The position numbers were made by a program. From a bacterium (lineage in GTDB: Bacteria > Zhuqueibacterota > Zhuqueibacteria > Oceanimicrobiales > Oceanimicrobiaceae): a stretch of DNA of 64,000 nt. Shown in pieces: positions 33,001 to 60,000 of the stretch. The stretch lies in assembly GCA_046757025.1 (NCBI GenBank), contig JBHHXN010000001.1:59185-123184 (forward strand), read 5' to 3'. Numbering within the stretch: position 1 is the stretch's first letter; every line of letters starts with the position of its first letter.

Positions 33001-36000
33001 GCCATCCGATCGTTTCAATGCGGACATCTGGAATACCTCGCCATCGGAAATTTTTTGGTGACGAACGATTCGCTGCAGAATAAACCATAGGGAATAATAG
33101 AGAGATTGTTTGCTAATTAAAGCACAATTTATTAAAGGAACCTGTTTCGTTGTCAATAAATTGTGCTTCTTGTTTAATAGATTTTGTGGATGGAGAGAAA
33201 TTAAGAATAATCAGGCTTCTGCAAAAAAAGGTGTTCAACCTTTAGAGCCTGTGTGAAAAGTCAACTTCCGGGCTTTTGTCATTCCCCGCTTTGCGGGACA
33301 GGCAGGAGGAATCTTTTTAGTTTTGAAGTAAAGTGTTGTTTATTAAAAAGATCTCGCGGTTGCGGGATGACAATAATGGCACATTGGGTTTTTAGCTGCG
33401 ATATCACTTTTTCACACAGACTCTTTAGGTTGAAGCACCTCAACTAAATTTCATTTTGCGGATTTCTAAAGAGTAATTTTATAAGGAGGATTATAATGAA
33501 CAAGTGTGTTTTTTTGATTCAAAGGTTCGACAATTACTGGCTAAAAATATTGATTTTTTCACTGTTGGCAGTTTGTCTGTTGACCCAAACCGCTCAAAGT
33601 CAGAGCACACACACCTTTCCACGGATTGCGGTACAGCATTTTGGCAAAGCGCCTCCGGACTGGTATGCGAGATTTGACATGGTCATCGTTCCACGTGCGA
33701 ATGCGAGCGAAGCCCGCAGCATCAAGGCGCTGAACCCAAACTGCTACGTGATTTTTACGGATGAGTGGTCTTCAAACACCAAAGGCATGAAACGAAGAAA
33801 TCAGCTTCCAGATGCCTGGCTGGCGCGGGATTCAAAAGGAAACATCATCGATCTAAGCTGGGGCAAACTCATCGATATGTCCATACTTTGCCCCAAAGTA
33901 AAAGGAAAGGCCTATTATGAAGATCATCCGCAATGGCTGGTGAACTACACCGACCTCAGCGTGTTTGATGGCATTGGCAGCGACTGGTGCTGGGGTAAGC
34001 CGCACGGAATCAAAGATATCGATTTGGATCGAAATGGGGTAAATGATTTTGATGAACATGGCAAAAATTGGGTTGAATCCAAATGGCTCGACGGCGTGTT
34101 AGCATTTATTGCCAATTTGAGAAAACATATTGGTCAGGACAAATTGATCTGGGTCAATTCCGGGCAATTCCAGAGATGGGGATGGGAGTATGCGAATGGC
34201 CTGGAATTAGAACGCTATTCCGGCATTTTAGGTTGGGATTTCTACATTCGCACCTACAAGAATTTTATGAAGCAAGCGCCTAAACCTCAGATTTTGTTGA
34301 TGGATGTGCGACCGTGGGGTAGCGATAACAATTTAGTTCGACCGACGAAAAATTATTTAAAATTGATGCGGTTCATGTTAACAGCCACGTTACTCGGCGA
34401 TGGTTATTTCAATTTTAATCCTGTGGAAGCGGGGGAACATCACTATCACAGCTACTATGATGAATTCGATGTGAATTTAGGCTATCCCACTTCCGAAGCC
34501 CTGGAATTGTCCAACGGCTGTTGGGTGCGTTTTTATGATAACGGCGTGTCCATCACCAATCCCACCGGACGGACCAAAGTGGTGGATGATGGGGCTTTGC
34601 GCTCGGTCTCCGGCTACGACGGTCCCTATTATCGTTTTTTGGGAGGCCAGGATCCGCAATTTAATAACGGACAAAAATTCACCAGCGTCGAGCTGTTTGG
34701 GACCAGTCAGAGAAAGGGTGGCCAGGACCTCATCACCGGTGATGGGATTATTTTGCTAAGAGAGCAAAAAATCGTGATTGCAGACATCATCATTGATAAC
34801 CTGGAATTTAATACCACGCCTACTCAGAAGCCAGCAAAATTTGTGGGAAATTGGCAGCAAGTTGACCAGGGAAGAGATTATTTCGCACAGAACAATCGAA
34901 GTCGCGAGAACTGGTATCCCCATGCTTATATTAACGGTGGCAACGGTTCACAGACGGCTACATTTAAACCTAACATCCGGGTACCAGGCGAATACGAAGT
35001 GCTTGAATGGCATGGTTACATAATTGAGAACCAGATGGCGCAGGATGTCACATACACCATCTATCATAAAAATGGCCAGAAAGTAGTAAAAGTGGATCAA
35101 AGTAAAAACCAGGGCCGCTGGAACAGTTTGGGTGTTTATTCATTTGATAATGGTCAATCCGGTAAAGTCGTGATTTCAAACAAAGCGAATGGCTTGGTCG
35201 TGGCGGATGCCATTACTTTTCGGTATAACGCTGGCGGTAAGCGTGTTGAAGTACCCGCACCGCCTACTGGAGTGAAAGTCGAAGTTTCAGCAAATTAAAG
35301 CAACAAACTGATCAGGAGAATCGAGTAGATCATGGCAACTTCCACGAATTTCAACTTCTGGCATCAATTGAAAATCACTTTGTGGTGGGGCTTGTTGATC
35401 GGCCTGCTCGCCGGCGCCGGAATTGCTTTATACGAAACTTGGTTTGCAAACTACTATATTCAAAAAGGATTGAGTGTTTTTGTTCTGGTAATTTTCTCAA
35501 AGAAAATATTAGCCTCGACCGGCGTTGCTTTCGTTTCTTTGCTGATTTTAGGCCTGGGCGTTTCGGGGTTCAGCCGTTGGTTCCTGGACATTCGAAACCC
35601 CGCCGCGGCCCGCCTCTCTTTGATTGCCGGCAGCCTCGTCCTGCTCATCGGCGGTTACTTTCTCAACAAATCTGAGTGGTTTCCCGCCATTTTATCTTTG
35701 CAGGGGATACTGGGGAATTTTGTCTTTTCCCTGGTGTGCGCCGGGTTGATGGTGGCTATGTATAAATTCCTGCTCAAAACTCAAATTGTCATCCCGGTGC
35801 CCGGTAAGAAGTTAGTCGGCAAATTGTACGGCAATATCAGCCTGTTCATTTTTGTGGCCGTTTTTCTGCTCTTCAATTTGTTTGCATACTGGCGGATTTC
35901 AACCCAGAAACCGGCAAATATCAATTTGGTTTTCATCACCATCGATACTTTGCGCGCCGACCGTCTGGGGTGTTACGGTTATGAACGCGATACCAGTCCG

Positions 36001-57000: not shown

Positions 57001-60000
57001 GAAAACCTGCTGGCCGTTTACCAGCAAGCCGATGCCCGCATTGCAGAAGTGTTAAAATTTGCCGATGAAAACACGGCAGTCATGATTCTCTCCGACCATG
57101 GCTTTTCTTACGGCGACATCACCGGTGAATCGAAATTTGGCCACTGGCAGGGACAGGAAGGGGTGTTTATTTTGTCCGGACCCCACATCAAAAAGAATTA
57201 CGATTTGTCCGAGATCGCCATTTTTGATTTTTTACCGACTTTGCTCTACATGCAAAATATGCCCGTAGCCATCGATTTAAAAGGGCAGGTGCTTTTATCC
57301 GCTTTTGAGGACGATTTTATTGATACCCACCCCGTGCGCTATATTTCATCTTTTGAAAGGCAGTCCGAACATTCGGATAAACCCGTGCAAACCAACATAA
57401 ACAAGGAAATCGAGAAGAAGCTGAAGTCGTTGGGCTACATAAATTGATGGTGAAACGGGTATTGAAAATGGACTTTTCGAAATAAAATTGAATGTGAAGA
57501 ACAAATGACCCCAAAATCGAAAATCAATGTTTTACAATTAGTTGAAGGATTGAATTTAGGCGGGGCGGAAACCAAACTGTTGGAGCTGGTTGCCCACATG
57601 GATCGCAGCCGTTTTAACACCGTGTTTTGCAGCCTCGGCATGGGCGAGCGCATCAAAGAAAAAGTGGACGCTTTGGATGTGAAATACGTAGGTCTGCAAA
57701 GGCGCAGGCGCTTTGATCCGAAATTGGTATGGGATGTGGCTAAAATTGTTCGGCAGGAAAAAATCGACGTGGTGATGACGACGTTGTTTTATGCAGATGT
57801 GGTGGGGGCTTTGGCGCGTATCATCAGCCCCACCAAAGCGGTATTCTCCTGGGAGACGATTTCAGCGCCGGAATGGCTGCTGAAACACCGGTTGCTTGCG
57901 TACAAATTTGCCATGCGCTTTTGTGACAAAGTCATTTCGGTTTCAGAAGCCACCGCCAAGTGGCTGGTGGAAAAACGGGGGGTTGCCAGAGAAAAAGTGC
58001 TGGTCATTCCTTACGGAGTGAATCTGGAGGTGTACAAACAGGGTAAGAATCTGGCGCTCAAACGCCAGCTTGGAATCGCACCGGAAACCTTTGTCGTCGG
58101 CACCGTCGCCCGGCTGCATCCACAAAAAGGGCATGAGTATTTGATTGAAGCCGCGAAAAAAATCGTGGAGCGGCATGCAAATGTGAAATTTGTGTTTGTT
58201 GGCGATGGTGAAATGCGCAAAAAATTGGAAGCCCGGATTGAAACCGCCGGCTTGGAAAATAATTTTCTGCTTTTAGGTTTTCGGGACGATGTAACAGATC
58301 TGCTGCGTGTGTTTGATATTTTCGTTTTGCCTTCGTTATATGAAGGATTGCCCAATGTTATCCTGGAAGCCATGGCCACCGGCTTGCCGGTCGTGGCTAC
58401 GGCGGTGGATGGCTCGGTGGAATTGGTGAACGATGGCGAGACCGGCTTTCTAGTGCCCCCCAGAGAGCCTCAGGCCCTAATTGCGAAAATCAACACCCTC
58501 ATTCAAAATCCGCAACGTGTGCTGGATTTCGGCATGCAGGGTAGAAATCGAGTCGAGTCCATTTATTCACTGGAAAAACAGGTTGAACATTTTCAGCAGT
58601 TGTACGAGAGTTACGCCGTTAATGGGCAGAGAAACGGGGGAACAGCTTGATTATTAGCGTATCATTTAACCAGCGAGACTCTTTTCACAAATCAAATTTC
58701 ACGGGCGCGATTTCAAAGCGCCTTTTTTATTGCCTAATTCCGCACCTGCAGGCTGTTTTCAATTTCTCTAGTTGTCGCATTAAAAGTCCAGTGCTTTTCA
58801 TCAAAAACCGAGATTGAATGATATTGTGAGTAGCCAACCAGCCGAGCTACTATGTTTAGAAATGAAACAAGTGTATGATTATTATACAAATTGATTTTAA
58901 TTTTTCAAATGGGAATCCCTGTTATAGGTAGCGTGTTTGCAATTGCTTATAATTTATGTATTTATTAATAATTTAGCTGTAAATTAGTGGCATAAAAATT
59001 GCCAGTTCTCTGAAGAATTTGCGAATTCGGGATCGGAACCCGGACATAGTAGATTAATTGCATAAAGTTTAAAGTGCAATTTCCGATAAATATATAGAAT
59101 TAGAGTACTTTACGAGCAAAAATTGTTACTATTCAGCCTAAACCGTCATGCTGAGCGCAATCTCCCAAATGCGGCGCCTCTCACCGGAAGTACCTGCGCG
59201 AAGCATCTTGCGAAGCGGTTTAGAGATTCTTCGCACATCAGGGATACAGGAGATGAGGAAAGAATCCGGAGTTTGTGCTCAGAATGACGACTCGGGCTGA
59301 AGAGTTACCTAAATTTAAAGGAAATTTCTCCAAAATCTTAAACTCCACATCAGGCTGATTGTCGAATGGACCATCACAAAAAAGTAGCGGTTTTAGTGCC
59401 GGCGTTGAACGAAGCAGAATCCATTGAAAAGGTCATTTCCGGGATTAAAAAGGTCAACTCCGATTACGATATTATCGTCATCGACGACGGCTCCACGGAT
59501 GAAACCGCCGTCATCGCCAAAAATGCAGGGGTAACGGTTCTTTCACTGCCGGTAAATTTAGGCTATGGCGCGGCTTTGCAGACAGGCTACAAATATGCAT
59601 TGATGCATGGTTACGATTTCACGGTTCAAATCGATGGCGATGGTCAACACGACCCCAAATTTATTCGTCCTCTCATCGAACTGCTGAGCAACGGTGCAGA
59701 TGTCGCAATCGGTTCGCGGTTTTTGGGAAATTTAGGCGGATACAACAATCCTACCTTGCGTCAGATCGGGATGATGTTTTTCCGGTTTTTGATTTTTTTG
59801 TTCATAAAACAAAAAATTTCTGATCCGACCTCCGGATTTCAAGCGCTGACAAGAGAAGTGGTGGCGTTTTTTGCCAAAAGCAAGCAGTATCCTTCTGACT
59901 TCCCAGATGCCGACATCATCATACTGCTGCATTATTCCGGATTTAAAATTGCCGAAATTCCGGTTGCAATGTACCGTAGTGAAACCGGCAAATCCATGCA

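Follow-up and report, generated by a model that had tools for sequence, protein, structure and literature searches.

Seven open reading frames (ORFs) in a 64-kb stretch of bacterial DNA (positions 59,185 to 123,184 of contig JBHHXN010000001.1; hereafter the window) end in the same short C-terminal tail, L-x-x-L-G-Y-[IL]-x(0-1), and it is the nature of this tail that we consider here. According to Pfam and NCBIfam scans of its ORFs, the whole window is one long plus-strand polysaccharide locus, with GT2 and GT4 glycosyltransferases, Wzy, two Wzx flippases, GH39 and a transmembrane (TM)-anchored heparinase II/III-like protein. The tails all fall within 37.1-57.4 kb, and the genes of this block, like the seven tailed ORFs among them, are on the plus strand. 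From 35.3 kb the block opens with three multi-TM S1-sulfatase-like proteins: enzyme 1 (35332-37200; 622 aa, about five TM segments and an S1-sulfatase-like domain; tail TKAAEERLRALGYIK at 37153-37197) and its paralogues enzyme 2 (37451-39592; 713 aa; tail TKEIEERLRSLGYLK at 39545-39589) and enzyme 3 (39739-41472; 577 aa; tail DKATIEKLKSLGYIR at 41425-41469). In all three (35332-41472) Thr replaces the formylglycine-forming Cys or Ser (T-W-P-S-L, T-I-P-S-H and T-S-P-S-H versus C/S-x-P-x-R), and, taken with the N-terminal bundle of TM segments, this site is more suggestive of transferases of the EptA/LtaS type than of hydrolysis.

The block continues with a 99-aa DUF2061 two-TM hairpin protein (44302-44601), whose tail, EDKILLEERLKELGYL at 44551-44598, is predicted to be cytoplasmic, and with two large NPP-like proteins of family PF01663 without tails. 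These are PDE_A (44680-46860; signal peptide, AxA followed by YIGPGAGFAF, a TM segment and RRRK) and its paralogue PDE_B (46853-48832; lipoprotein or Sec signal). Next come a 63-aa ribbon-helix-helix (RHH) protein (48864-49055; tail SEEEVKKRLQGLGYLS at 49005-49052) and a tail-less 275-aa three-TM protein (49119-49946), which matches no Pfam or NCBIfam family and has a segment of ~140 residues between TM2 and TM3, with segments on both membrane sides. A mechanically called 99-aa RHH ORF from 48756 is an upstream extension; homologues and gene calls support 63 aa. After a methyltransferase gene follow an ATP sulfurylase (Sat) fused to a soluble NPP-like PF01663 domain (50872-53508, the domain at 52126-53505) and a 207-aa APS kinase (CysC, 53713-54336), in which the native last helix of the kinase (54205-54246) is succeeded by a linker and then by the extra tail (54286-54333). 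The CysC stop codon overlaps the start of the next gene, which encodes a translationally coupled, soluble NPP-like PF01663 protein of 448 aa with neither TM segment nor tail (54336-55682). Finally, a three-TM PF01663-like enzyme of 580 aa (55705-57447) ends in tail NKEIEKKLKSLGYIN at 57400-57444.

Could a tail of this kind be a product of composition or descent? A six-frame scan of the 64-kb window for L..[LIVM]GY[ILVMA] with 0-3 residues before the stop returned the same seven ORFs and no others, and together with the translations it bears out the coordinates and sequences that the first-pass annotation had given, with the RHH gene at 48864-49055. One hundred shuffles of the window gave a mean of 0.29 motif ends and a maximum of 2, against the 7 observed. 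As a wider background we used 1,675 ORFs of at least 80 aa from the window and 160 related loci, a sample of locus flanks rather than whole genomes; here the enrichment that had been proposed as a check is clear, with the motif at the C-terminus in 88 ORFs against ~0.27 expected from its internal density (23 internal copies, mostly the native last helix of CysC). On unrelated flanking ORFs, of which about 1,500 were covered, the tail occurs in isolated cases at most. Neither a similar frequency on housekeeping proteins nor absence of the tail from orthologues was found, within the reach of this locus-flank sampling. In the window tails the invariant leucines are encoded by CTG, CTC, CTT and TTG, glycine by all four GGN codons and tyrosine by TAT and TAC; because synonymous codons vary so freely, selection acts on the peptide and not on DNA or RNA, and a DNA repeat as the source of the tail is ruled out. 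The proteins had also been called unrelated, which is an overstatement: three are S1-sulfatase-like paralogues, and with them the 580-aa protein falls in the alkaline-phosphatase superfamily, leaving four to five independent folds that carry the tail in the window. This kinship, and the fact that a helix followed by LGY is common in other folds (PG_binding_1-like, UBA-like and an actinobacterial repeat), is what can be said for coincidence, compositional bias, a DNA repeat or inheritance among paralogues. Against it stand the two counts, the codon diversity, the presence on at least four unrelated folds and the conservation across at least ten phyla, and we put its likelihood at next to nil.

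The alignment of 45 non-redundant tails on LGY reveals what is being conserved. Leu(-3), Gly and Tyr are invariant and Leu(0) is found in 44/45; Arg or Lys occupies -4 and -2, Ile, Val or Leu is preferred at -7, acidic residues lie at -9 to -12, and Ser or Thr at -14. The motif is trailed by 0-3 residues (1-4 after Tyr), the number varying from tail to tail. Helix-capping rules involve an N-cap, a dipole-matched first turn, i/i+4 Glu-Lys pairs and a Schellman C-cap. Read by these rules, the pattern corresponds to a Schellman cap with C3 = Leu(-3), C' = Gly and C'' = Tyr, and the tail to an autonomous self-capped helix of ~14-16 residues. It would thus be portable and self-folding, with an S/T/D N-cap, a first turn that is acidic or polar, hydrophobic residues in a stripe at -7/-3/0, a basic last turn and the L-x-x-L-G-Y-[ILV] cap. 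AlphaFold (AF2) models agree: in the RHH protein the tail helix spans 49-58 with a predicted local distance difference test score (pLDDT) of 81-87, and in the monomer model of P0237, a natural NPP-CysC fusion, it spans 689-701 with pLDDT ~73, with 23 residues of pLDDT <50 between it and the kinase core. The linkers before the tails are long, variable and predicted to be disordered. The proposal that the tail is a helix-forming C-terminal element common to different folds is upheld by these models and by the position pattern. The internal CysC copy of the motif, which had been listed as an additional instance, is present; it is the helix with which the APS-kinase fold normally ends and not a second tail (the PRK00889 model ends at CysC residue 178, and the copy corresponds to helix 641-654 of P0237). 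Likewise, the acidic stretch said to precede every tail holds for the cytoplasmic ones (RHH, CysC and in part DUF2061) and not for the others. The cytoplasmic flavour runs Y-[ST]-x-E-E-E-x-K-I-K-x-R-L-x-x-L-G-Y-I, and the periplasmic flavours run [LM]-[ST]-x-x-E-L-x-x-L-[RK]-S-L-G-Y-I-Q and D-K-K-T-I-x-K-L-K-S-L-G-Y-I-R.

Must the motif be terminal? Two sulfatase-like proteins at L080:10538-15519 carry it internally (...EQKLRALGYVGGG and ...LQKLGALGYVSPG), directly before a C-terminal TPR domain. Because 0-3 residues trail the motif and because it can sit at the domain junction of these sulfatase-TPR fusions, a free carboxylate is not essential. The tail differs in both respects from carboxylate-anchored motifs such as HbYX, PDZ ligands and Tsp/Prc or ClpX degrons, and the degron that the first-pass annotation had offered as one of three roles is disfavoured in its carboxylate-dependent form. 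More broadly, a degron for coordinated proteolysis, or a site of tyrosine modification such as sulfation by the system's own sulfotransferases, would suit an exposed, tethered C-terminal tail with an invariant Tyr and, in the cytoplasmic tails, acidic residues upstream, all the more as sulfotransferases and PAPS (3'-phosphoadenosine 5'-phosphosulfate) synthesis are encoded in the same loci. We nonetheless regard it as highly improbable. The tail is found in two compartments, the varying trailing residues and the internal motif argue against carboxylate-anchored recognition, and the co-occurrence with NPP-like genes described below is not predicted. For sulfation in particular, the basic residues are found 2 and 4 positions before the LGY leucine, with the acidic run 9-13 residues distant from it, an arrangement unlike known Tyr-sulfation sites, and Pfam scans of the ORFs found no canonical sulfotransferase in the window itself. 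Sulfation and phosphorylation of the Tyr were both considered and found no support.

A further role that had been suggested is that of a peripheral membrane-binding amphipathic helix of the MinD/FtsA type, which could hold the cytoplasmic enzymes at the membrane and orient the periplasmic domains on the outer leaflet. Like MinD and FtsA membrane-targeting sequences, the tail is a short C-terminal amphipathic helix after a flexible linker, its size is close to that of the MinD sequence, and such a helix would work on either membrane face; a DUF2061-anchored CysC in locus L055 points to a membrane association of CysC in such systems. The physical properties of the tail disfavour this role. The window tails have a mean hydrophobicity of 0.10-0.31, a hydrophobic moment of 0.15-0.39 and a net charge of -2 to +2, mostly lower than the 0.27-0.41, 0.33-0.61 and +3 to +4 of three reference membrane-targeting sequences; there is no net positive charge, and the acidic run beside the cytoplasmic tails disfavours anionic membranes. 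Additionally, four of the carriers are already integral membrane proteins, Leu, Leu, Gly and Tyr are strictly invariant across phyla, and the link to soluble NPP-like genes is not predicted by membrane binding. Strict invariance of residues is atypical of membrane-targeting helices, and taking these points together, we judge a membrane helix to be very unlikely.

Sequence searches place the tail outside described families. Scans of Pfam (2025) and NCBIfam r20 gave no sorting-signal or tail-specific model, in line with the earlier statement that it is no known sorting signal: the tails have no Pfam match, PG_binding_1 included, and the NCBIfam scan of window proteins found no sorting-signal model at E <= 0.01. 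Sortase, exosortase and rhombosortase signals (LPXTG, PEP-CTERM, GlyGly-CTERM) differ from the tail, which has no TM segment and basic cluster and is followed by 0-3 residues only. Full-text literature searches returned no description of the tail or its motif. When 40-aa tail queries were run against 5.8 billion proteins, only proteins of at most 70 aa were returned, namely RHH proteins and gene fragments, and an exhaustive hidden Markov model (HMM) search with the seven window tails gave 14 significant matches, the multi-copy ones being, on reading their sequences, PG_binding_1-like repeats, a UBA-like sequence or construct and actinobacterial repeats. Judged by these matches, a helix plus LGY appears to be a generic capping motif when it is internal to other folds; the feature peculiar to this system is that the helix stands alone, tethered at the end of the chain, on one set of functionally linked proteins.

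That set is remarkably widespread. The RHH protein, which has no Pfam or NCBIfam family match, has 1,102 homologues at E <= 1e-3, and among the matches listed these are 61-66 aa long and keep the tail, as LGY[ILVM] plus 0-2 residues, in 119/120 cases. In a scan of one genome per species it is found in at least 588 species genomes of at least ten phyla; the groups include Acidobacteriota, Gemmatimonadota, KSB1, Calditrichota and Entotheonella, and also Eisenbacteria, Krumholzibacteriia, Brocadiaceae, Methylomirabilota and Myxococcota. Around it, 80 RHH-centred loci display a conserved cassette of PDE_A (a core member in at least 50/80), PDE_B, the tailed RHH protein and the three-TM protein, often flanked by a tailed sulfatase-like protein and a sulfotransferase of ~210 aa; in 54 loci, from different phyla, the three-TM gene comes next after the RHH gene. 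Counted by family among 1,146 ORFs, the tail is present in 39/39 RHH proteins, 19/22 sulfatase-like proteins, 6/9 CysC and 2/2 DUF2061 proteins, with single cases on an ASST-like protein, a TPR lipoprotein and a second RHH protein, and it is found in 0/54 three-TM proteins and 0/24 sulfotransferases. In one RHH subfamily the RHH and CysC tails are nearly interchangeable (...GYSPEEEEKIKERLRGLGYIS). The ~210-aa protein (Sulfotransfer_3/1, LPRSGTS motif) has its own conserved C-terminus, ...LYRNR, and adjoins the cassette in at least 24 loci outside the window, among them L015, L024, L036, L039, L044 and L053. Apparent PDE_B-RHH fusions (L030, L042, L058, L066 and L082) look like upstream read-through in high-GC DNA, of which L042 may be real, and a 522-aa 'CysC' of L087 that might have passed for a fusion was shown to be upstream read-through.

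With which protein, then, does the tail travel? One family answers to this description, and the co-occurrence with a specific partner that the first-pass annotation had proposed to look for in other genomes was indeed found. Of the 96 loci with tails, 95 encode PF01663, as do 72 of the 73 that measure 8 kb or more, against 10/68 loci without tails; no other family is so nearly universal among the loci with tails, the three-TM protein being present in 79/96. CysC is particularly informative. Among 79 CysC-centred metagenome loci the extra tail is carried by 12/13 CysC proteins with a PF01663-family neighbour versus 9/66 without one (Fisher p = 6.5e-8; p = 0.0012 when limited to loci with at least 1.5 kb upstream), and the neighbour of these 12 tailed CysC is a soluble NPP-like protein in 11 and PDE_A in L086. 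The same holds among close relatives: L004 and L005, whose CysC are 77% and 74% identical to that of the window, lack the tail as well as a soluble NPP-like gene, and their Sat is unfused; the window and L006 have both the Sat-NPP fusion and the CysC tail. DUF2061 is tailed in the window, L060 and L096 and tail-less in L127 and L055; in L127 no PF01663 gene was seen within 3.5 kb, and in L055 the protein at 2232-2978 is a membrane-anchored DUF2061-CysC fusion without the tail, which connects DUF2061, a family otherwise uncharacterised, with PAPS synthesis. Some CysC (L120, L125, L128, L144 and L162) bear another C-terminal extension, ...GDRxHSGLTDLRVxDTGHVVKES, in place of the LGY tail; these too adjoin a soluble NPP-like gene, and the extension may be an alternative docking element.

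Gene fusions tell a related story. A search with the NPP-like domain concatenated to CysC found that Sat-NPP fusions are widespread (KSB1, Anaerolineae/Chloroflexota and others; P0235-P0354) and also turned up two independent NPP-CysC fusions and one Sat-NPP-CysC fragment; full-text literature searches gave no description of Sat-NPP fusions or of a DUF2061 function. Among NPP-CysC fusions, 5/6, all of one clade, have lost the tail, and P0237 keeps it. Immediately downstream of P0237 lies a tail-less 457-aa PF01663 paralogue, and its locus also holds a tailed, TM-less PF01663 protein; in L167 a 74-aa RHH-like protein with a tail stands beside a tail-less NPP-CysC fusion. The NPP-like domain itself has no PDB relative by sequence, and by fold it is nearest to NPP1, NPP3 and Xac NPP, at 13-16% identity. 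Its position beside APS/PAPS synthesis raises a question of function; might it be a sulfotransferase acting via a covalent Thr intermediate?

Not every candidate receptor belongs to PF01663. TPR domains classically bind short C-terminal peptides, the motif stands just before a TPR domain in the sulfatase-TPR fusions, TPR proteins flank some cassettes and one TPR lipoprotein is itself tailed, all of which would fit a docking helix for TPR-domain proteins. A second alternative receptor is the 275-aa three-TM protein, which always adjoins the RHH gene and has segments on both membrane sides. We consider it quite unlikely that a receptor of either kind is the right one, as no TPR protein is present among the window ORFs scanned and the three-TM protein occurs in 79/96 tail loci against 95/96 for PF01663. 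The three-TM protein was not found in tail-bearing L094, L164 and L167, with sequence of ~10 kb on most sides; absent from the inspected CysC-tail loci that have no cassette, it is ruled out as a universal receptor.

If the NPP-like family does provide the receptor, on which side of the membrane would it be met? Among sulfatase-like orthologues that could be evaluated, there are fewer Lys/Arg after the last TM segment than before it in 11, equal numbers in 2 and more in none, and on account of this balance (the positive-inside rule) the catalytic domain and tail are predicted to be outside, that is, periplasmic, as for enzyme 1 of the window. The Lys/Arg around the TM segments of the TM-anchored PF01663 protein at 55705-57447 likewise predict a periplasmic domain and tail. 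A cytoplasmic location is predicted for CysC, which is ATP-dependent, for the RHH protein, which lacks a signal peptide, and for the C-terminal end of the DUF2061 hairpin. PDE_A orthologues (window, L004-L060) have a cleavable signal peptide ending in AxA, a near-invariant Y[IV]GPGAGFAF opening a TM helix, and an Arg/Lys cluster, which implies an N-out/C-in anchor; the catalytic domain of PDE_A, in the window as in these orthologues, is thus predicted to lie inside, in the cytoplasm. PDE_B, with its lipoprotein or Sec signals, is predicted to be outside, in the periplasm. Since tails occur in both the cytoplasm and the periplasm, at least two receptor copies are needed and a single receptor is unlikely; PDE_A and PDE_B, one paralogue per membrane side, would fit as a receptor pair.

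Of the three roles that had been put forward, docking to a common scaffold or receptor fits best, because of the tether on a disordered linker, the one co-occurring partner family and the Rosetta-stone fusions to CysC and Sat; the single receptor that had gone with it does not survive the two compartments. Our preferred, still tentative reading, to which we give somewhat less than an even chance, is that the tail is a tethered docking helix whose putative receptor is the NPP-like PF01663 family of a sulfation system. The tail would then be the protein-protein docking module of one multi-enzyme system, with PDE_A, the Sat-fused domain and the soluble 448-aa protein as candidate cytoplasmic hubs and the lipoprotein PDE_B as the periplasmic one. 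CysC, DUF2061 and RHH proteins would be the cytoplasmic clients, the membrane-anchored sulfatase-like and PF01663-like enzymes (elsewhere also ASST) the periplasmic ones, each recruited on its own side of the membrane. For the CysC tail, the Sat-fused NPP-like domain would be the prime candidate partner and the 448-aa protein the second. In the RHH protein, a dimer that binds DNA would be linked through the tail to this same partner, in the manner of the C-terminal tails of RHH antitoxins. The motif itself, its conservation, its tethered helical form, its restriction to certain families and loci and the statistics on neighbours and fusions are results; binding to a protein, the NPP-like identity of that protein, the compartments and a regulatory part for the RHH protein are inferred.

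Several observations weigh against the preferred reading and hold our confidence down. Co-occurrence is partly phylogenetic, being inherited along with the operon, and the 80 loci were selected via the RHH gene, which is always within the cassette. P0237 keeps its tail although NPP and CysC are already fused, which would not be expected of a tail that served merely to bring CysC and this NPP-like domain together, although the tail-less 457-aa paralogue lies next to it; its tail pLDDT of ~73 in the AF2 monomer does not amount to confident docking. The tailed CysC of L085 has no PF01663 gene in a 13-kb locus (of which only 2.5 kb upstream is covered), some PF01663 proteins are themselves tailed (55705-57447, L134 and the 544-aa protein of L164), and the compartment assignments rest on the positive-inside rule only. 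Finally, at the domain junction of the sulfatase-TPR fusions the motif may bind TPR domains or pack in cis.

The last point leads to an explanation that dispenses with a dedicated receptor: the tails could associate with one another, in small helical bundles or in condensate-like clusters, and so co-assemble their carriers on each membrane side, or each could act in cis as a latch, a helix that caps or autoregulates its own protein. The hydrophobic stripe has coiled-coil-like 4-3 spacing, tail pLDDT is high within the RHH monomer model, the CysC tail mimics the native last helix of its own fold, and in the sulfatase-TPR fusions the motif is an internal junction helix. Encapsulation peptides of bacterial microcompartments (BMC), the closest analogue, are also reported to self-associate (PMC12339742). 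Two heptads are short for a stable bundle, though, and bundling alone does not account for the invariant Gly-Tyr. Long, variable, predicted-disordered linkers are not what an integral fold element would lead one to expect, the presence of the CysC tail follows that of a neighbouring gene and not a change in CysC, and in L094 a tailed CysC stands beside a tail-less NPP-like gene with no other tail within 10 kb on either side. We therefore rate self-association or a cis-latch as rather unlikely.

The docking reading can also be taken further, to a picture that is, in our estimation, unlikely as a whole: a trans-envelope sulfation machine, previously undescribed and spread over many poorly studied phyla (Acidobacteriota, Gemmatimonadota, KSB1, Calditrichota, Entotheonella and others), with the tail as its assembly code. 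The hubs would be NPP-like paralogues on both faces of the inner membrane and the capped helix their one universal tag, recruiting PAPS-synthesis enzymes inside and Thr-nucleophile sulfatase-like transferases outside. The tagged RHH repressor would compete for the cytoplasmic hub and, as a partner-switch, report hub occupancy to transcription.

The tail is best placed among terminal helices with a probable docking or targeting role, and it belongs to a sulfation cassette that is very widespread and uncharacterised. If it is a docking code, it offers a direct experimental handle on an uncharacterised system of polysaccharide loci, in which PAPS synthesis is connected with enzymes of the NPP-like and sulfatase-like kinds on either face of the membrane. 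Bacteria would then also provide a case of a short linear motif common to enzymes and their own transcriptional regulator, and the tail would be a compact self-folding tag with possible use in the scaffolding of engineered pathways. Even with a different receptor, the motif is a cheap sequence marker for members of the system in metagenomes. Elsewhere in the window's polysaccharide locus, carA and carB (carbamoyl-phosphate synthase) lie within 11490-18055 and 31357-33090 together with two NodU/CmcH-type carbamoyltransferases and an SxtJ-like small protein, which suggests that the polymer is carbamoylated as well as sulfated. The inverted repeat found at 39600-39680 (TTGGCTTTTGGCCGTTAGC ... GCTAACAGCTAAAAGCCAA), just 3' of the second sulfatase-like gene, probably forms a hairpin of the terminator-like kind.

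How does the tail compare with known systems? The nearest likeness in sequence is to the first helix of PG_binding_1 (PF01471) and to the helix 1-MGF/Y loop of UBA domains, in which ...RLKELGY or ...RLKALGF likewise forms an amphipathic helix followed by Gly and an aromatic residue. In those cases it is the first helix of a three-helix domain (with a DGxxG loop and helices 2-3 in PG_binding_1), whereas the chain of the tail ends 1-4 residues after Tyr, and to judge from this the likeness is one of capping motifs and not of homology. The use of one short terminal tag to bring several clients to one hub has precedents in encapsulin cargo-loading peptides, dockerin-cohesin pairs and the C-terminal peptides of SSB and FtsZ. 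These are mostly extended peptides or, for dockerin, a calcium-binding domain, and their sequences differ; the encapsulin cargo peptide is extended and Gly/Ser-rich, and the tail here is helical and charged. Pfam scans of large window ORFs found neither an encapsulin (HK97-fold) nor a cohesin family.

Two systems come closer. The core of the RHH protein superposes on Arc, NikR, VapB, FitA, ParD and AtaR (Foldseek, AF2 model versus PDB), with Arc and NikR as the closest structures at a root-mean-square deviation of 1.1-1.7 A over ~41 residues, and it shares with the RHH antitoxins and regulators VapB, FitA, ParD and AtaR the arrangement of N-terminal RHH domain, linker and C-terminal helix, the last being the partner-binding element in antitoxins, through which their regulation is coupled to the partner. 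It differs from antitoxins in having no toxin gene nearby, its neighbours being PDE_B and the three-TM protein (54 loci), and in that the LGY tail is also found on enzymes, which antitoxin tails are not. BMC encapsulation peptides (PMC4594438, PMC12339742) are short amphipathic helices on a poorly conserved disordered linker at the N- or C-terminus of unrelated enzymes of one cluster, and they serve as portable modules for targeting and assembly. The tail differs in that the shell families PF00936 and PF03319 are absent from Pfam scans of large window ORFs, in its much stricter pattern (invariant L-x-x-L-G-Y with a Gly cap) and in its carriers, four of which are multi-TM proteins with predicted periplasmic tail domains, unlike the cytoplasmic, soluble cargo of microcompartments. 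The parallel nevertheless extends to a helix (AF2) on a variable disordered linker and to seven carriers in one locus, and by analogy the tail functionally resembles BMC encapsulation peptides most, and antitoxin tails as well.

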